From Candidatus Doudnabacteria bacterium (GTDB lineage Bacteria; Patescibacteriota; Doudnabacteria; UBA920), in NCBI GenBank assembly GCA_031291995.1, contig JARLHZ010000004.1:5272-69271 (forward strand): 64,000 nucleotides of DNA. Direction: 5' to 3'. Shown here piece after piece: positions 6,469 through 60,944 of this stretch. The notes below the pieces were generated by a model. That model was not told the DNA's origin. It did not search any database and was given only the letters and a program-made list of their open reading frames with translations. Position 1 is the stretch's first letter. Each line of letters begins with the position of its first letter. The translations under genes and the position numbers were made by a program.

Positions 6469-6873
6469 GCTGATTTTTTGGATATCGGCTCCTTATTTTA
6501 CGCGTTGTGGTCCAAACCAGACCCGCATAAAATAATAATATATAGATAAGCTCGTTTTTTTATGGACAACAGGGGAAATTGCCAGCTAATTCCTATATAT
6601 ATTAATTGTCTTTTTTAGAGTGATTTGCACTTATTAGTTTAACAAGATAAGGAGCAGGGGGCAAGGATTTTATTCACAAGCCTGACATTTTTGGCTTTAT
6701 TTACAGGAGATTTTTTTAACCTACCTTTAAAATAGAGGCGAATTTAGGCCGCTATCCATTTTAACAATTGCCATCCTAATATTTTATCAACGCATAAAAT
6801 CGCGTCACGTTAATTAAAAATTAGGACTAAACGATTATAAAATGTTAAAATGATAAGATGTTAAAATAATCCT

Positions 6874-9078
6874 ATGGATTTATCGGCGTTAAATAATCAG
6901 CAAAAGCAGGCGGTCACAGCGGGTCTCGGGCCGGTTTTGGTATTGGCCGGGCCGGGCAGCGGCAAGACCAAAACCTTAACCCACCGGCTGGCGTATTTAA
7001 TTGAAAAAAAACTCGTGCCGCCGGCCAACATTTTAGCCCTGACTTTTACAAATAAGGCGGCTAAGGAGATGCGCGGCCGGGTGGCTGTGCTGTTGGCGAG
7101 ATTTGTTTCCGCGACGGAACAATTGACCATGGGAACTTTTCACGCCGTGTGCGCCAAAATTTTGCGGCACGAAATCGCGGTTTTAGGCTATGGCCATGAT
7201 TTTGTGATTTTTGACAGCCAAGACCAGCAAAAAGTCATTAAGGAAATTTTGGAAGAACTGCGCGTGGACACCAAGCGTCTGCCGGCCTCTATGTTTGGCG
7301 CCCTGATTTCCCGCGCCAAAAATCTTCTGCAGCTGCCGGCGGAACTGGATTTGGGATTGGATTCCCCGCTCCGCGAAAAATTAGCCGAAGTTTACGCGCG
7401 TTACCAGGACAGCCTGTTTAAGCAAAACGCTCTTGATTTTGACGACTTGCTGATGCTCACCGTAAAAATTATGGAAAACTTCCCCAAAATACTCCAAAAA
7501 TATCAAAAAAAGTTCGTTTATGTTTTGGTTGATGAATACCAGGACACCAACGCCGCCCAATACCGCCTGTTACGAATGTTCTCCGAACACCGCAATTTGT
7601 TCGTGGTCGGCGACGACGCGCAGAGCATATATAAATTCCGCGGCAGCGACATTACCAACATCCTGAATTTTGAAAAGGATTTTCCCGAGGCTCAAATTAT
7701 CAAACTCGAACAGAATTACCGGAGCACCAAGAATATTTTAAACGCCGCGCAAAAGGTTATAGAGCTTAATCCCGAACAAAAACCCAAAACTTTGTGGACG
7801 GAAAATCCGGACGGGGAAAAAATTATTTTGGCCTGCGAAGAGGATGAGCAGGCCGAAGGCGGGTTTGTGGCCAGAAATATTATTAAGCTGGCCACCAACC
7901 AGGGAACCGGGGAATTGGAATACGAGACGGACGACAGCCAAAAGGACAATGACGATAAGCCAAGTTTCTCTATTCTCGACAGGTTCATTAAAGCCAAAAA
8001 AATGCAGGCCAAATATTCACCGTCGCTGGGCAGTTTTGGCCGGGGGCTGTTACCGCAGCTGCCGAAAAAGCACGAACCGCTTAGGGAATTTTGCGTACTT
8101 TACCGGACCCACGCGCAGAGCCGTGCCATTGAAGAAGCTCTAATAGAATCAAGTATTCCGTACCAGATTGTCGGCGGCCTGAAATTTTACGAACGCAAGG
8201 AAATTAAGGACATGCTGGCTTATTTGCGCCTGACGCTCAATTTTCGCGACTTGGTATCGTTAAAGCGCGTGGTTAACGAGCCGCCGCGGGGGATTGGGGA
8301 TAAGTCTTATGAGATAATCAGGGATTTTATATTAAATTTTAAACAGGATGAGAAATCCGAAAAACCGGATAAATCAAAGAAGCTCGCTTCTGATTCCCCA
8401 GTTCTCCGCCTTTCAGAATTTAGGAGCGCGTTTGCCGAAGTTACGCTGCAGCGCAAAGCCTGGCATTCGGCGCAGGATTTTTTTGCCGTGCTCGGGGAGC
8501 TTACGGAGTTTAACGAAAAATCCGCTTTGTCCGAGCTGATGAAATTGGTTGTCCGGAAAACGGGATACGAAAAATACTTGCGCGACGGCAGCGAGGCCGG
8601 CGAATCGCGTTTTGAAAACGTGGAAGAACTGTATTCCGTGGCGCAAAAGTTCGGCAACCTGCCGTGGCGGGAAGCGTTGTCGGAATTTTTGCAGGAAGTG
8701 GCGCTTATTAGCGAAATCGACCAAAAAGACGAAAGCAAAGACGCGGTAACTCTTATGACCCTGCATAGCGCGAAGGGTCTGGAGTTCGATAATGTGTTTT
8801 TTGTGGGGCTGGAAGAGGGGATATTGCCTCACAGCCGCAGCCTGCTGGACCCGAGCGAACTGTCCGAAGAAATCCGCCTGGCTTACGTGGGCCTGACCCG
8901 GGCGCGCAAACGCCTGTTTTTGGTCTACACCCACAGCCGCCGCGTGTTCGGCAATTGGCAAATCAGCCAACCGTCGCGCATTCTTAAAGCTTTGCCCAGA
9001 GAAAATATGGAATACCGGGGAACTGCCAAAGAACATTTTAGCGGCAACGATGGGGAACTGGAGTATGAAGTCACGTAG
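6874..9078 (+). CDS. uvrD: UvrD/PcrA/Rep-family ATP-dependent DNA helicase
   Basis: Walker A GPGSGKTKTLTHR, motif II VLVDEYQDTN, and a UvrD C-terminal motif VGLTRARKRLFL. Confidence 0.85.
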   Translation: MDLSALNNQQKQAVTAGLGPVLVLAGPGSGKTKTLTHRLAYLIEKKLVPPANILALTFTNKAAKEMRGRVAVLLARFVSATEQLTMGTFHAVCAKILRHEIAVLGYGHDFVIFDSQDQQKVIKEILEELRVDTKRLPASMFGALISRAKNLLQLPAELDLGLDSPLREKLAEVYARYQDSLFKQNALDFDDLLMLTVKIMENFPKILQKYQKKFVYVLVDEYQDTNAAQYRLLRMFSEHRNLFVVGDDAQSIYKFRGSDITNILNFEKDFPEAQIIKLEQNYRSTKNILNAAQKVIELNPEQKPKTLWTENPDGEKIILACEEDEQAEGGFVARNIIKLATNQGTGELEYETDDSQKDNDDKPSFSILDRFIKAKKMQAKYSPSLGSFGRGLLPQLPKKHEPLREFCVLYRTHAQSRAIEEALIESSIPYQIVGGLKFYERKEIKDMLAYLRLTLNFRDLVSLKRVVNEPPRGIGDKSYEIIRDFILNFKQDEKSEKPDKSKKLASDSPVLRLSEFRSAFAEVTLQRKAWHSAQDFFAVLGELTEFNEKSALSELMKLVVRKTGYEKYLRDGSEAGESRFENVEELYSVAQKFGNLPWREALSEFLQEVALISEIDQKDESKDAVTLMTLHSAKGLEFDNVFFVGLEEGILPHSRSLLDPSELSEEIRLAYVGLTRARKRLFLVYTHSRRVFGNWQISQPSRILKALPRENMEYRGTAKEHFSGNDGELEYEVT

Positions 9079-9082
9079 ATAA

Positions 9083-9190
9083 TGCCAAATTTCAGATTTC
9101 AAATATCAAATCAATGGCGAAGTTTAAAATTTAAAATTTAAAATTAGGATTTGATTTAAAATTTTTAATTTAAAATTTGTAATTGTGTCC
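9083..9190. repeat. word-built hairpin, caaatttcaaat / atttgaaatttg family
   Basis: ccaaatttcagatttcaaatatcaaatc ... gatttaaaatttttaatttaaaatttgtaattg are inverted arms of A/T-rich words. Confidence 0.6.
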
Positions 9191-14276: not shown

Positions 14277-14323
14277 TATTCGCTTTTCAATCGACCGTTT
14301 AGAAAAACAAAAATTAGGAGATC

Positions 14324-14352
14324 AAAAAACCATCATCAAAGATGGTTTTTTG
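14324..14352 (+). terminator. rho-independent terminator
   Basis: aaaaaccatc-atcaaa-gatggttttttg is a stem-loop followed by a T-run, downstream of 12318-14276. Confidence 0.6.
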
Positions 14353-14481
14353 ATAGTCACGGGTCTGCCGCCGAATATTTATGCTTAACGCGTTAGGCCT
14401 GACCCGGATAGTTATTTGCACTATAATTTGCATCCATCGGTTGCAAATAATTTCAATAAGCGTAAACTGTAGATAGCCATT

Positions 14482-14519
14482 TGGTAGACAAAACGTGCGG
14501 CCGCACGTTTTGTCTACCA
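14482..14519. repeat. 38-bp perfect palindrome, copy 1
   Basis: tggtagacaaaacgtgcggccgcacgttttgtctacca (centre GCGGCCGC). Confidence 0.9.
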
Positions 14520-14563
14520 ATATCAAATAAAAATTATTACAAGTAGTCTTAAAAATAAAGTTT

Positions 14564-14656
14564 CGTCATCCCCGGCTTGACCGGGGATCCAGAATTGTTC
14601 TTACTTGCTTGACTTGGATTCCTCCGTCCGCCTTAGGCGGGAGGACGGGAATGACG
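14564..14656. mobile_element. MITE-like element copy (TGTCATCCCG family)
   Basis: cgtcatccccggcttgaccggggatcc ... ggcgggaggacgggaatgacg. The termini are inverted (gtcatccccg / cgggaatgac). Confidence 0.45.
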
Positions 14657-14717
14657 TAAAGTGGTCAAAGGTTATTTTTTAAGATAGCTTCTAAGATAAA
14701 AATTAAATTTTACTTTT

Positions 14718-15251
14718 ATGCCGAAAAAAGATTCGACCGCGGTAAATGAAGTTTTATTTTGGCTGTACGAGACGGGGAAGCTTTTGTCCGTAATTTTCGC
14801 GTCCAAGCACGAATGGAAAAGGCGGATGTGGAATCATACCTGGGGGAACTACAACAATTATAAATCCACGGTTTACCATATGCGGGAACAGGGGCTGGTG
14901 GAAATCGTGTCCAAAGATGGCTTAAGGTTTTTAAAACTTACGTCCAAAGGGCAAATGGAAGCATTGCTGGCCAAAGCAAAAGTCGTTAAGCGAGCAGTTT
15001 GGGATAAAAAATGGCGGGTGCTGATTTTTGACATCCCGGAAGACGCCAAATTGCAGAGGAACCAATTCAGGCGTCTGTTAAAAAGAAATGAATTTAAAAA
15101 ATTGCAGGCCAGCGTTTATGTAAACCCCTACCCGTTTAACCGCGAGGCAATTGAATATTTAAAAGAATCAGGTTTAATAAAGTACATTCGGATTTTAAAA
15201 GTTGAAGAAATGGACAGTGATGCCGATTTGCGTAAGATGTTTAATATATAG
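14718..15251 (+). CDS. wHTH + Cas2/VapD-fold (PaaX-like) small protein
   Basis: N-terminal winged-helix-like region (VYHMREQGLVEIVSKDGLRFLKLTSKGQ). The C-terminal region matches the Cas2 beta1-alpha1-beta2 pattern (KKWRVLIFDIPED...QFRRLLKRNEFKKLQASVYVN). No cas1 or array is present. Confidence 0.4.
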   Translation: MPKKDSTAVNEVLFWLYETGKLLSVIFASKHEWKRRMWNHTWGNYNNYKSTVYHMREQGLVEIVSKDGLRFLKLTSKGQMEALLAKAKVVKRAVWDKKWRVLIFDIPEDAKLQRNQFRRLLKRNEFKKLQASVYVNPYPFNREAIEYLKESGLIKYIRILKVEEMDSDADLRKMFNI

Positions 15252-15325
15252 GACTTACTTCTTTCAAAGCGGAACACATTTTTTAATGAGCTTCTGATAC
15301 TAGTCAAATAATCTAAAAATAAAAT

Positions 15326-15363
15326 TGGTAGACAAAACGCGCGGCCGCACGTTTTGTCTACCA
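15326..15363. repeat. 38-bp palindrome, copy 2 (one mismatch)
   Basis: tggtagacaaaacgcgcggccgcacgttttgtctacca. Confidence 0.9.
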
Positions 15364-15732
15364 AAGACAAGAGTTGTATTTTTATATTTATAGGCGATAT
15401 TGGCGAATGGCGCGGGTGGTGTGGCGTGGCAAATCAAATCGGATATTCTGAAGGCAATTTCGGTTTTAATCGACACTATTCCCCGGAGCCCCACTCCAGG
15501 GTTAACAATTATGTCATCCCGGAATTTTTCAGGGCTGTGAAAAATATCCGGGATCCAGTCAGGGCGGCATTCTGGATCCCGGCTCTCTACCTTCGTCAAG
15601 GCTACGGCAGACAAGTCGGATGTATTCGGCCGAGCTGATACACTAGCTATTTGGACTTGTTACCACGCTGCTCTGCCGCGGGGAGGGCTCATTGAAAATC
15701 TGATGCCAATCTTAATAATCTAGAAAGAAAAT

Positions 15733-15770
15733 TGGTAGACAAAACGTGCGGCCGCACGTTTTGTCTACCA
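15733..15770. repeat. 38-bp perfect palindrome, copy 3
   Basis: tggtagacaaaacgtgcggccgcacgttttgtctacca. Confidence 0.9.
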
Positions 15771-15955
15771 AAGACAGGTTTTGTTGAAATTATATTTTAT
15801 AGACGATATCGGTGCGTGGCGCGGGTGGTGCGGGGTGGAAAATCGTCCCGGATATTCTAAAGGTAATGTCGGTTTTATCTAATTTTTACCAATACACAAA
15901 ATTGTTCCGTTTCCCGTAGGTTTGCCGGACTATATTTTGACTTTAATTCACAAGT

Positions 15956-16115
15956 TTGCCGAGGTTACTTCCCACTGGCCCTGTGTCATTGCGAGGAAAC
16001 AAGGGCTTTGACTTATTTCCGAAGCAATCTTAGAGAGACAATAAGATTGCTTCGTCGGCTGCACTCCTCGCAATGACACAACAATTCAATACCCAGTGGG
16101 CAGTAACTTGCCGAG
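15956..16115. mobile_element. MITE-like element with ~45-bp imperfect terminal inverted repeats
   Basis: Left arm ttgccgaggttacttcccactggccctgtgtcattgcgagga. Right arm tcctcgcaatgacacaacaattcaatacccagtgggcagtaacttgccgag. Internal palindrome gaagcaatcttagagagacaataagattgcttc. Confidence 0.55.
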
Positions 16116-16119
16116 TATT

Positions 16120-16147
16120 TTGTGATTTTTGGGGAATGTGGTATAAT
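16120..16147 (+). promoter_or_regulatory. sigma70-like promoter candidate for the VirB6-like gene
   Basis: -35 ttgtga at 16120-16125, a 16-nt spacer, and an extended -10 tgg-tataat at 16139-16147. It sits 24 bp upstream of the ATG at 16171. Confidence 0.4.
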
Positions 16148-16170
16148 TTTAGTGAAAGTCTTATCCACAA

Positions 16171-24782: not shown

Positions 24783-25181
24783 ATGGCAGATCAAAACAAA
24801 ATAATCCATAAGGATCTCAGTTATAAAATTGTCGGTGTTGCTTTTAGATCTTTTAAGGCAACAGGATATGGAATGCCTGAAAAGTACTGTCAAGGTGTGT
24901 TCGCTGCCGAACTTGAGAAAGCTGGGTTGCACTTTAATCGGGAAGTTTATGTTACTTTAAATTATGAAGGTAAAGTTATCACAAAGTATTTTTTAGATTT
25001 TATTGTTGAAGATTCGGTGGTTGTGGAATTAAAAGTTCGGCCAAAAATCGGATATGCCCATATTGAACAAGTAATGGCATACCTTAAAGCAACGAATAAG
25101 AAATTAGCGATTTTAATCTATTTTACCCAAGAAGGTGTGAAATATCGGAGAATCGTTAATTCTTACAACAAACTACAATGA
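24783..25181 (+). CDS. GxxExxY-family protein (PD-(D/E)XK-like)
   Basis: DLSYKIVGVAFRSFKATGYGMPEKYCQGVFAAELEKAGL...FLDFIVEDSVVVELKV...IEQVMAYLKATNKKLAILIYF. Confidence 0.7.
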   Translation: MADQNKIIHKDLSYKIVGVAFRSFKATGYGMPEKYCQGVFAAELEKAGLHFNREVYVTLNYEGKVITKYFLDFIVEDSVVVELKVRPKIGYAHIEQVMAYLKATNKKLAILIYFTQEGVKYRRIVNSYNKLQ

Positions 25182-25923: not shown

Positions 25924-26030
25924 GTCAAATTATAAATATCAAATTTCAAATCAATGTCAAAGTTTGAAATTTAAAAAATTTGTAATTAGGTTTTGATTTG
26001 AAATTTGTAATTTGATATTTGAAATTTAAC
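25924..26030. repeat. word-built hairpin, caaatttcaaat family
   Basis: tgtcaaattataaatatcaaatttcaaatcaatgtcaaag ... ttttgatttgaaatttgtaatttgatatttgaaattt. Confidence 0.6.
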
Positions 26031-27880: not shown

Positions 27881-28040
27881 TTTCAAATTACAAATAACAA
27901 ATTTCAAATAAATTCCTAATTTTAAGCGCCAAATAATATCCAAAAGGCCGCGTGTTAAATTTCAAAAGTCCGGGTTTGGCCTTTGAAATTTGGATTTTGG
28001 CGTTGGTTTGATATTTGGAATTTGTAATTTGGAATTTTTT
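27881..28040. repeat. word-built hairpin(s), caaatttcaaat family
   Basis: tttcaaattacaaataacaaatttcaaat ... atttgaaatttggattttggcgttggtttgatatttggaatttgtaatttggaat. Confidence 0.6.
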
Positions 28041-28045
28041 ATTTT

Positions 28046-33454: not shown

Positions 33455-33640
33455 GACAAGATTGACATAATTGAACAAAATTGACAAGATTATCATAGTA
33501 TAACCTTGTCAATTTTTTTTGGCTCGGCATTCTTTACACCAGGAACTACTTAGCAAAAATCGTTTATGATATTCCTGTCAATCCTGTCAATCCTGTCAAT
33601 CTTGTCAATCTTGTCAATCATTTTACTCTTGTCAATCATC
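33455..33640. repeat. word-built inverted arrays (ttgacaag x3 upstream, cctgtcaat/cttgtcaat x6 downstream) around a terminator hairpin
   Basis: ctgacaagattgacataattgaacaaaattgacaagatt ... hairpin ttgacaagattatcatagtataaccttgtcaa followed by an 8-T run ... cctgtcaatcctgtcaatcctgtcaatcttgtcaatcttgtcaatc. Confidence 0.6.
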
Positions 33641-43378: not shown

Positions 43379-44122
43379 AAAAAGGGGTCAGGAGCCATTT
43401 ACTAGAAGATAGTTTTGTGGTATCTTTAAAATATGCCCAGATCCCAAAGAGCCGACATAGCCAATATTATTTACCATGTCATCAACCGGTCCAATGCCAG
43501 AATGGCCATTTTTGAAAAAGCCCAGGATTTTCTGGCCTTTTTGGAAGTTTTAAGTGAAGCCAGGGAGAAGTTTCTTGTGGAAGTTCTGGCTTTTTGCATA
43601 ATGCCCAACCATTGGCATTTAATTTTAAAACCTTTAAAATACGGGGAACTGTCCAAGTTTATGGCCTGGCTGACAATGACCCATACCCAGCGCTGGCATG
43701 CCTTTCACCACACCGTCGGCAGCGGCCATTTGTATCAGGGCAGGTACAAGTCTTTTCCGGTTCAAACCGATGAGTATTTTATTCAACTAGTCCGGTATGT
43801 GGAAAGAAACCCATTAAGAGCAAAGTTAGTCAAAAGTGCCGAAGACTGGAAGTGGGGCAGTTTATGGTTAAGGCAGCAGGGGACTTTACAACAAAAGCAA
43901 TTACTCGGTTCCTGGCCCATACCGCCGAGTAAAAATTACCTGAAGTTGGTTAATACTGTTCAACCTATAGCCGAAGTCGACTCTATTAGAACCGCCATTG
44001 CAAAAAACCGACCCTTAGGAGACGACCGCTGGGTACAACGCACGGCTAAGACATTGGGTTTAACATCCTCATTAAGAAACCCGGGTAGGCCAAGAAAAAA
44101 CGGCTCCTGACCCCTTTTTGTT
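43379..44122. mobile_element. IS200/RAYT-like unit: tyrosine (HUH) transposase gene bracketed by 18-bp perfect inverted repeats
   Basis: aaaaaggggtcaggagcc at 43379-43396, and ggctcctgacccctttttg at 44104-44122 overlapping the stop codon. Confidence 0.6.
43433..44110 (+). CDS. REP-associated tyrosine transposase (RAYT) / IS200-like HUH transposase
   Basis: HUH motif MPNHWHLIL, a conserved Y in RYVERNP, and the typical N-terminus YHVINRSNARMAIF. Confidence 0.75.
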   Translation: MPRSQRADIANIIYHVINRSNARMAIFEKAQDFLAFLEVLSEAREKFLVEVLAFCIMPNHWHLILKPLKYGELSKFMAWLTMTHTQRWHAFHHTVGSGHLYQGRYKSFPVQTDEYFIQLVRYVERNPLRAKLVKSAEDWKWGSLWLRQQGTLQQKQLLGSWPIPPSKNYLKLVNTVQPIAEVDSIRTAIAKNRPLGDDRWVQRTAKTLGLTSSLRNPGRPRKNGS

Positions 44123-48471: not shown

Positions 48472-48516
48472 TCAATTTTACTTAATTTTACTTAATTTTA
48501 GTAATTTTACTTAATG
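48472..48516. repeat. short tandem direct repeats (ttttacttaat x3-4)
   Basis: tcaattttacttaattttacttaattttagtaattttacttaatg immediately upstream of the ROK gene. Confidence 0.6.
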
Positions 48517-58533: not shown

Positions 58534-58983
58534 ATGGATATTGATAAATTACATCTGGAACCGGCAAAAAAAGTTAAGACCAGCGACCATCGGGGCATTG
58601 AGAACGGCTGGCTGATGGAACTGTATAAAGACAAAGACACGGGACAAAAAACCGAAGCTTATTTAACCGCGGCCTTACCGGGCGCGTTTAAGGGCTATCA
58701 TCTTCACCGCGTCCGCGCGGCCAGGTATGTGGCTGTAAAAGGGCGAATGAAAATTACCTGCTACGAAAACCAAGGCGGCAAATGGAAGCCGAGCGAGTAT
58801 ATTTTGTCGGCGGATAACCCGCAAAGATTGTTTATTCCCAAAAATGTGGCCACCGGTCTGGAAAATATCGGCAGTGAAGAAGCCTGGCTCATTAATTATC
58901 CGGATCCAGCCTATGACCCAAGCTTGAAAGACGAACAGGTGGAATACACAAGGGAAGAGCTGGAACGGGGCATTGTTAAATGA
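58534..58983 (+). CDS. cupin-type sugar epimerase/isomerase (RfbC/FdtA-like)
   Basis: HRGIENGWLMELYKD...AFKGYHLH...FIPKNVATGLENIGSEEAWLINYPD. Immediately upstream of rfbB-rfbD-rfbA. Confidence 0.5.
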   Translation: MDIDKLHLEPAKKVKTSDHRGIENGWLMELYKDKDTGQKTEAYLTAALPGAFKGYHLHRVRAARYVAVKGRMKITCYENQGGKWKPSEYILSADNPQRLFIPKNVATGLENIGSEEAWLINYPDPAYDPSLKDEQVEYTREELERGIVK

Positions 58984-59068
58984 ATTAGGAATGATGAATT
59001 AGGAATGATGAATTAGGAATTATGAGTTTGTCCCATTCCTAATTCCTAATTCCTAATTCCTAATTCCA
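58984..59068. repeat. word-built hairpin (taggaa/ttccta family)
   Basis: aattaggaatgatgaattaggaatgatgaattaggaattatg ... cattcctaattcctaattcctaattcctaattcc. Confidence 0.7.
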
Positions 59069-60881: not shown

Positions 60882-60944
60882 GAATTAGGAAGTAGGAATA
60901 AGGAAACTCCTAACTCCTACTTCCTAACTCCTAAATCCTAATTC
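60866..60944. repeat. word-built hairpin (taggaa/ttccta family)
   Basis: ttaggaattaggaagtaggaataaggaaactcctaactcctacttcctaactcctaaatcctaattc. Confidence 0.7.

Follow-up and report, generated by a model that had tools for sequence, protein, structure and literature searches.

Two copies of one operator, one at the promoter and one distal, are a familiar device of repression: lac (O1-O3), gal (OE-OI) and deo all have a geometry suited to DNA looping. Autorepressing winged-helix dimers with palindromic operators are likewise ordinary and not mechanistically surprising. The closest described counterpart of the protein considered here is PaaX of Escherichia coli, which represses its own Px promoter by steric hindrance at a site (TGATTC-N27-GAATCA) spanning 39 bp, a length that follows from two winged helices being held apart by the dimerisation domain (PMC9493321). 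The subject of this analysis is a PaaX-like gene and the long palindromes on either side of it, in a 64-kb stretch of DNA (64,000 nucleotides; the window) from a metagenome-assembled genome (MAG) of Candidatus Doudnabacteria, in the candidate phyla radiation (CPR; Patescibacteria) of ultra-small bacteria. The palindrome is probably the cognate autorepression operator of the 177-aa protein, a mini-PaaX, encoded between its copies. The elements concerned are:

14481-14520, unstranded: palindrome copy 1, the upstream site in its long form, 3' of candidate promoters and 197 nt 5' of the ATG
14718-15251, + strand: mini-PaaX regulator gene (P4L74_00485, 177 aa), winged helix plus Cas2-like PaaX_M domain, between copies 1 and 2
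15325-15364, unstranded: palindrome copy 2, with one mismatch, a downstream site in operator/terminator position, 73 nt past the stop codon
15732-15771, unstranded: palindrome copy 3, perfect, a duplicated downstream site

A first-pass annotation of this DNA had described three copies of a 38-bp palindrome around a gene of Cas2 fold, and this was borne out, coordinates and mismatch count included. In a search of the whole window the 38-mer TGGTAGACAAAACGTGCGGCCGCACGTTTTGTCTACCA matched without mismatch at 14482-14519 and 15733-15770 and with one (T to C at position 15) at 15326-15363; there was no further match in 64 kb with up to three mismatches and none in 100 dinucleotide shuffles (chance expectation 0). 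The symmetry runs one base further on each side, giving 40 bp (TTGG…CCAA). These are by far the longest perfect hairpins of the window: their arms measure 17-20 nt, whereas the next longest reaches 14 nt and shuffled sequence 8-10 nt. The predicted energy of the RNA hairpin is -26 to -30 kcal/mol. The inner core alone, consisting of an A-tract, a GC stem and a T-tract, resembles a small bidirectional terminator (-8 to -11 kcal/mol); its pattern was found three times in the window, where 0.11 occurrences were expected.

The protein encoded between the copies matched PaaX_M (PF20803, named 'PaaX central Cas2-like domain' in Pfam) over residues 93-169 at 1.1e-18 (67.6 bits, cutoff 24). It also matched the CRISPR_Cas2 model at 1.8e-5; matches to Cas2 hidden Markov models were weak and covered the first beta-alpha unit. 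No helix-turn-helix domain was called in the Pfam scan, and a PDB sequence search gave nothing significant, fold search alone being informative. An AlphaFold2 model (61 homologs, pLDDT 79) has at its N terminus a winged helix-turn-helix (wHTH; helices 7-18, 30-36 and 45-57, the last being the predicted recognition helix, and a beta-hairpin wing at 61-74), followed by a ferredoxin-like beta-alpha-beta-beta-alpha-beta domain, the Cas2-like part being residues 99-162. The best PDB match in Foldseek was E. coli PaaX (8a39, E = 2.9e-6), followed by the PaaX-like Rv0674 and 3l09; the N-terminal part resembles wHTH proteins of the MarR, PadR and F-93 type and the C-terminal part resembles Cas2.

The protein therefore shares with E. 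coli PaaX an N-terminal winged helix and a central Cas2-like (PaaX_M) dimerisation domain, but PaaX is ~300 aa long, whereas the CPR protein ends at residue 177 and the C-terminal helical domain for the ligand phenylacetyl-CoA is absent. The PaaX equivalog model TIGR02277 scored only 34.1 bits against a cutoff of 264.55, and only over profile positions 38-159 of 279. From profile and fold, the regulator is judged to resemble the DNA-binding and dimerisation half of PaaX, yet not to be a PaaX ortholog. The sites compare in a similar way. Their spans are close (38-40 bp here, 39 bp for PaaX; PMC9493321), and a PaaX-like span explains the length of the palindrome without any special structure. 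However, the palindrome of the CPR site is uninterrupted and its GCGGCCGC centre invariant, whereas that of PaaX consists of two hexamers and a non-conserved spacer. The CPR gene also differs in having a second copy of the site at its 3' end and no paa genes nearby: none was detected among the window open reading frames (ORFs) scanned, and the neighbours are of type IV secretion system (T4SS) type and housekeeping.

In common with CRISPR Cas2, the C-terminal domain is ferredoxin-like, and it is up to ~30% identical to type II-A Cas2 over ~70 residues, but it is joined to a wHTH, and PaaX_M is its best match; the neighbouring ORFs include no cas1, and the window contains no CRISPR array. A role in a defence system was rejected, PADLOC giving only partial Cas2 matches. 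In public records members of the family are named 'CRISPR-associated endonuclease Cas2', 'PaaX' or 'phenylacetic acid degradation operon negative regulatory protein', and none of these names suits a protein of 175-180 aa without cas or paa neighbours.

Comparison across genomes is what gives the palindrome its probable function. Syntenic orthologs with 57-69% protein identity were found at eight other distinct loci (L003, L006, L007, L009, L010, L011, L013 and L015). In 9/9 loci, the window included, the regulator gene has a GGCC-centred palindrome on its upstream and on its downstream side, and the core AAAnnTGCGGCCGCAnnTTT is common to all except L003, in which it has diverged. In L006, L007, L009, L011, L013 and L015 the 18-nt spacer of a sigma-70 promoter scoring 10-12/12 is taken up by the upstream core; in L007 the promoter reads TTGACA-core-TATAAT. 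These six share one register, with TTGACA at -16..-11 and the -10 box (TATnnT) at +9..+14 relative to the palindrome centre, and 24-38 nt separate the -10 box from the ATG. At L010 the -35 box of the upstream site is kept and the -10 box is degenerate. Judged from its placement, a core in the promoter spacer is the textbook layout of an autorepressed promoter. The downstream site consists of the same core extended by genome-specific symmetric arms, 34-60 bp in total, and starts -4 to +73 nt from the stop codon; the centres of the upstream and downstream sites are 594-844 bp apart. In ~160 kb of loci the core occurs 24 times beside the regulator gene and twice elsewhere (one coding coincidence in duplicate loci). 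A core-like AAAAGAACGGCCGCAAGTTT inside the regulator coding region (L007 3188-3207, equal to L008 2138-2157) arises where the wing of the winged helix is encoded, from the codons for K-N-G-R-K-F; it was seen in one lineage only and is probably a coincidence.

The idea, raised among several in the first-pass annotation, of an operator for the adjacent wHTH protein thus gains comparative support, since the core of the orthologs stands in the promoter spacer and again past the stop codon, and private palindromes of paralogs (described below) are placed likewise. The same pass would have taken absence of the palindrome elsewhere as a sign of a local duplication artefact. That argument does not apply, for although the palindrome is absent elsewhere in the window its position is conserved across genomes.

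An alternative is that the palindromes work only as RNA hairpins, either intrinsic terminators or mRNA-stabilising stem-loops, and that the core is inherited or convergent terminator sequence. The downstream site would suit such a role, being at the gene end, with no other strong hairpin separating the regulator gene from the next promoter, and its core has the A-tract, GC stem and T-tract of a terminator; copies 2 and 3 score as terminators on the minus strand. Stem length does not separate the two possibilities. The first-pass remark that the stem is far longer than a terminator needs is half right, as stems of 14-22 bp with A/T tracts inside them are found in ordinary terminators of these genomes too. 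On the other hand, the coding strand has no T-run past the full stem, although the inner core, with its GC stem and T4-7, might be able to terminate. The upstream copies are harder to accommodate. In the promoter-embedded loci the preceding gene has a separate terminator of its own, and with the core lying between -35 and -10 it follows that termination does not depend on the upstream core, which is outside the transcript of the regulator.

Conservation within the sites bears on the same question. Counted from the centre, positions 1-5, 8-11 and 17 show no variation in the nine lineages, unlike the ordinary terminators of the same loci, which vary freely in their stems. Positions 12-16 have 3-4 Watson-Crick pair types each and are paired in 44/45 cells. 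Overall 93.9% of cells are paired, compared with 71.7% in shuffles, and both sides have changed in 10/20 pairs; the sites have a covariation score of 0.615, whereas shuffles give 0.143 (0/500 reach 0.615) and slid controls 0.06-0.13. Such strong arm covariation is expected of an RNA hairpin, but the changes nearly all replace one Watson-Crick pair by another, G-U intermediates being few, and at one paralog (L017) identical imperfect palindromes are kept at both positions, mismatches included. A role as RNA hairpins alone leaves the copies in promoter spacers and the invariant core unexplained, and is unlikely for the palindromes as a whole; for the arm extensions it is possible.

In the window itself the upstream region is less clear-cut, and its features are:

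14317-14358, + strand: hairpin of intrinsic-terminator type (A-tract, stem, T-tract) ending the upstream 652-aa gene
14399-14427, + strand: candidate regulator promoter CTGACC-17-TATAAT, 10/12
14441-14468, + strand: candidate regulator promoter TTGCAA-16-TAAACT, 8/12, with the layout and -10 box of L003 (TTGACA-17-TAAACT)

Equivalent hairpins lie 3' of the orthologous upstream gene in L003, L006, L007, L013 and L015. Because the 652-aa gene has its own terminator, the upstream palindrome is not needed to end that gene. Both in the window and in L003 the upstream site is of the long form and lies 3' of the candidate promoters, an arrangement that comparison with the other orthologs marks as derived.

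The two-site layout is not confined to the T4SS-cluster member of the family. Several paralogs are present per genome, in varied gene contexts, and the gene-bracketing arrangement recurs around every relative of the regulator examined in CPR bacteria, T4SS-cluster members included. A paralog in the same MAG (L002; P4L74_00420, 49% identity), between the genes for SmpB and ArgRS, has a different palindrome, ATACATTAATAAACCGTACCTACGGTTAATTAATGTAT, at its stop codon and an imperfect copy of it between a TTGACT-16-TATATT promoter and the ATG. Among sugar-nucleotide genes (L017), an identical 36-nt imperfect palindrome is found directly before the ATG and over the stop codon. Beside MnmA (L020), a site of the TTGA(T)GCGGCCGTCAA type lies inside a TTGACG-17-TATACT promoter and again past the stop. 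As paralogs outside T4SS contexts share the layout, a private palindrome on both sides is, on the evidence of these loci, a property of the protein family rather than the T4SS. Among the 12 proteins compared the Cas2-like domain hardly varies, and the start of the predicted recognition helix splits the nine proteins with a GCGGCCGC core ([K/R]x[T/S/C][V/I]) from three paralogs (Y[N/S][A/V/I][L/A/I]).

Bracketing of this kind might also arise if the sites were bound by some other factor, or were DNA structures (cruciforms, recombination sites) bounding a gene cassette, their arms being made symmetrical by template switching rather than by selection. Near-identical sites on either side of the gene in every family member, which at L017 are direct repeats of an imperfect palindrome, are consistent with this, as is the presence of several paralogs in one genome with varied surroundings. 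Within any one genome the upstream and downstream sites have the same right outer arm, a sign that sequence may have been exchanged between the two. However, synteny is stable across orthologs that have diverged to 57-69% protein identity, with no sign of recent mobility, and no recombinase adjoins the gene. Placement in promoter spacers points to transcriptional control, for which the adjacent protein is the obvious DNA-binding candidate, so a cassette or a different factor is a very unlikely explanation.

The paralogs also bear on whether the palindrome could be an origin of transfer (oriT) or nic-type site, some other place where the adjacent T4SS processes DNA, or part of a replication origin, an origin or oriT-like site having been among the first suggestions. 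Regions of oriT typically hold inverted repeats bound by small accessory DNA-binding proteins, and the palindrome does lie within a cluster of VirB6, PrgI, VirB4 and lysozyme type. Against this, paralogs beside SmpB/ArgRS, sugar-nucleotide genes and MnmA, far from any T4SS, have the same layout, and neither relaxase nor coupling protein (T4CP) domains were detected in the window ORFs scanned. Monoderm-type T4SS clusters of Patescibacteria are usually without a relaxase (PMC12102498). Cumulative GC skew climbs across the whole window with no switch of sign and DnaA boxes are not enriched (16, with 12.6 expected), on which grounds a replication origin was rejected; a plasmid or mobile origin was rejected since no plasmid similarity was found. 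An oriT or origin function is accordingly extremely improbable.

A further early suggestion was that the palindrome is a repetitive extragenic palindromic (REP) element, or part of a bacterial interspersed mosaic element (BIME), mobilised by a Y1 transposase gene at 43433-44110 that resembles REP-associated tyrosine transposases (RAYTs). Like REP elements it is extragenic and 35-40 bp long, it contains GTAG in its arm (GGTAGAC), and the Y1_Tnp gene is in the same window. Unlike them it is not dispersed: all three copies surround one gene in 64 kb, and exact and relaxed searches of 185,579 representative genomes gave no match. The orthologous sites are equivalent in syntenic position but differ in their arms (GTAAAG, GGTATA, GTTATA, GACAGC…), so that GTAG is not conserved. 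Nor is the palindrome tied to the RAYT-like gene, which scores 69 bits against the RAYT equivalog cutoff of 80 (REP_Tyr_transpos) and is flanked by an unrelated inverted repeat, AAAAAGGGGTCAGGAGCC, itself not dispersed. A REP-type origin can hardly be entertained. In the region of that gene (43379-44119), 22-nt inverted repeats, AAAAAGGGGTCAGGAGCCATTT and its complement, bracket 43433-44110 and occur at this gene only within the window.

In the metagenome collection a relaxed palindrome pattern gave one match only, at L001 9757-9794 (JACCDG010345577.1). This has the form GTAGACAAAACGAGCAC-GTGA-GTGCTCGTTTTGTCTAC, sharing the outer 12-bp arms and differing in the inner stem and centre, and it lies on an unrelated contig directly 3' of the stop codon of an upstream gene. 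It was rejected as a true relative because of its different centre, and is probably an ordinary terminator or a chance match.

Several observations weigh against an operator. The upstream copy in the window is not embedded in a promoter, and the promoter of the regulator is weakly defined there (8-10/12). Long hairpins are the local terminator style, and positions 12-16 of the downstream sites vary yet stay complementary, as those of a pure nucleic-acid hairpin would. The promoter-embedded upstream sites have no symmetric outer arms, so that not every site can strictly require them. The correlation between recognition helix and operator rests on 9 proteins versus 3. Finally, a conserved promoter of the TrbL-like gene lies 130-350 nt past the downstream site and is without the core, leaving the target of the downstream site in doubt.

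Even so, autorepression through the palindrome accounts best for the invariant core and its place in promoters, and from the sites, their conservation and promoter embedding, the specificity of the paralogs and the protein fold we infer a scheme of binding, dimerisation, looping and termination. By analogy with PaaX, mini-PaaX would dimerise through its Cas2-like domain and place two winged helices on a two-fold symmetric site of ~38-40 bp. Binding at the upstream site would result in negative autoregulation. In the six promoter-embedded orthologs, since the core fills the whole spacer between -35 and -10, a bound dimer would have to exclude RNA polymerase; in the window, the long-form copy 1 just 3' of the candidate promoters may instead act as a roadblock or an occluding site. 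The downstream site probably has a dual role, ending transcription as an RNA hairpin and serving in DNA as a second operator; the latter function would allow cooperative (looped) repression with the promoter site. It may also limit read-through into the TrbL/VirB6-like T4SS operon.

Such a downstream site can be set beside two well-known arrangements. As in the looping repressors there would be two copies of one operator, 594-844 bp apart with one at the promoter and one distal, looping itself being presumed here; unlike theirs, the CPR sites bracket the gene of the regulator itself and the distal site is at a terminator position. As with intrinsic terminators, the downstream copies are at a gene end, have a core of A-tract, GC stem and T-tract and share the long stems of the local style; they differ in that the core is invariant across genomes and occurs also inside promoter spacers, and in the lack of a T-run past the full hairpin on the coding strand.

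The downstream side of the gene in the window, and one part of its upstream spacer, have been rearranged:

15307-15877, + strand: tandem duplication, each unit comprising AATAAT, 12 nt, the palindrome and then ~105 nt of G-rich sequence
15692-15719, + strand: promoter-like TTGAAA-16-AATAAT, 12 nt 5' of copy 3, with the geometry of the candidate promoter before copy 1
14563-14657, unstranded: GC-rich composite hairpin insert of 95 nt between copy 1 and the gene, absent from orthologous loci

Copies 2 and 3 lie within the duplication (15307-15468 and 15714-15877, 83.6% identity over 165 nt, period ~408 bp). On sequence grounds it is regarded as real and not as an assembly artefact, and copy 3 as the downstream site duplicated by this lineage-specific event. 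When the two units are compared, 1/40 positions have changed in the palindrome and 26/125 in the flanks (binomial P = 1e-3); the palindrome has thus been constrained relative to its surroundings. The -35 equivalent before copy 2 is degenerate. A promoter just 5' of the downstream palindromes was discarded as a general feature, being present at copy 3 of the window and at L003 and not recognisable in the other orthologs. The G-rich block of ~105 nt has no counterpart in any ortholog and its frames are not conserved between the units, so a conserved small RNA or small ORF in it was also rejected; Rfam gave nothing for the block at gathering or permissive thresholds. That copy 1 might be an inverted copy of a longer unit was dismissed because flank identity was near background in both orientations (27/60 at best).

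Upstream spacers of the orthologous loci are mostly 126-265 nt and do not contain the 14563-14657 insert. Together with two other GC-rich composite hairpin inserts, at 15509-15640 and 15982-16080 and likewise absent from orthologous loci, it widens the spacers around the regulator gene. One of these inserts has the form GTCATTGCGAGGA...TCCTCGCAATGAC, with 16-nt perfect arms 67 nt apart. Each is essentially unique in the window, and they resemble small insertion elements or elements of miniature inverted-repeat transposable element (MITE) type.

The regulator is part of a conserved neighbourhood. It lies in a chromosomal stretch with the gene order IleRS, RecO, UvrD, KsgA, two unknowns, the 652-aa protein, the regulator, a TrbL/VirB6-like protein, a PrgI-like protein, a VirB4-like ATPase and a lysozyme-like protein. 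This is the monoderm-type T4SS cluster known from Patescibacteria, for which a recent survey names no regulator (PMC12102498). At its start are:

16114-16172, + strand: promoter of the TrbL/VirB6-like gene itself, TTGTGA-16-TGgTATAAT, with no palindrome core inside
16171-19932, + strand: gene for a TrbL/VirB6-like membrane protein, which opens the downstream T4SS-type cluster; PrgI-like, VirB4-like and lysozyme-like genes come next

Because the VirB6-like operon has its own well conserved promoter free of the core, direct control of the T4SS is not demonstrated, and control of that promoter by the regulator is not indicated by its sequence.

Other features of the neighbourhood stand apart from the palindrome. 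The promoter/leader DNA of the TrbL/VirB6-like gene is 90-95% identical across orthologs (L003 6705-6813, L006, L015 and L016), whereas flanking proteins are only ~60% identical. A perfect DnaA box (TTATCCACA, 16161-16169) lies immediately 5' of the ATG of that gene and is perfect in L003 too. Flanking the PrgI-like gene, at 23749-24123 and 24783-25181, are a gene of the '23S rRNA-intervening sequence protein' family (PF05635) and a PD-(D/E)XK nuclease (PDDEXK_3) gene, both of which may be insertions into the T4SS-type cluster. AT-rich short tandem repeats with periods of 7, 9, 10, 14 or 16 nt lie directly 5' of many start codons: those at 6837-6867, 9123-9184, 25996-26027, 28007-28044, 33573-33637, 48474-48515, 58980-59067 and 60905-60944 precede genes starting at 6874, 9193, 26033, 28046, 33643, 48522, 59072 and 60945, respectively.

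A wider generalisation may be considered, although at present it is doubtful: that short PaaX_M proteins are self-contained modules throughout the CPR, each with a private pair of ~40-bp operators, a near-invariant Cas2-like dimer over an equally stable GGCC/A-tract centre, arms read by the winged helices and a repression loop, the member in the conserved T4SS cluster of Doudnabacteria and relatives gating the VirB6-like operon. The variable winged helices would then read the genome-specific outer arms (positions 12-17), and protein and site would diversify together, insulating paralogs from one another. If this were true, the module in the T4SS cluster would be the first candidate regulator of a Patescibacteria T4SS.

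To our knowledge almost nothing is known about transcriptional regulation in the CPR/Patescibacteria. In the searchable literature no description was found of a truncated PaaX-type family in the CPR or of its sites, and none linking PaaX/Cas2-like regulators with the CPR. What is new is therefore the family itself, its private pair of ~40-bp sites bracketing the gene, and the presence of one member inside a conserved Patescibacteria T4SS cluster, where it sits between genes for secreted proteins and the VirB6-like gene. The finding also explains why such genes are occasionally mis-annotated as 'Cas2' in CPR genomes. The locus provides a testable repressor-operator pair, the consensus promoter with its embedded operator being best seen in L007, and the natural specificity variants (arms among the orthologs, cores among the paralogs) allow dissection of how a 40-bp site is read by a PaaX-type dimer of wHTH and Cas2-like domains.

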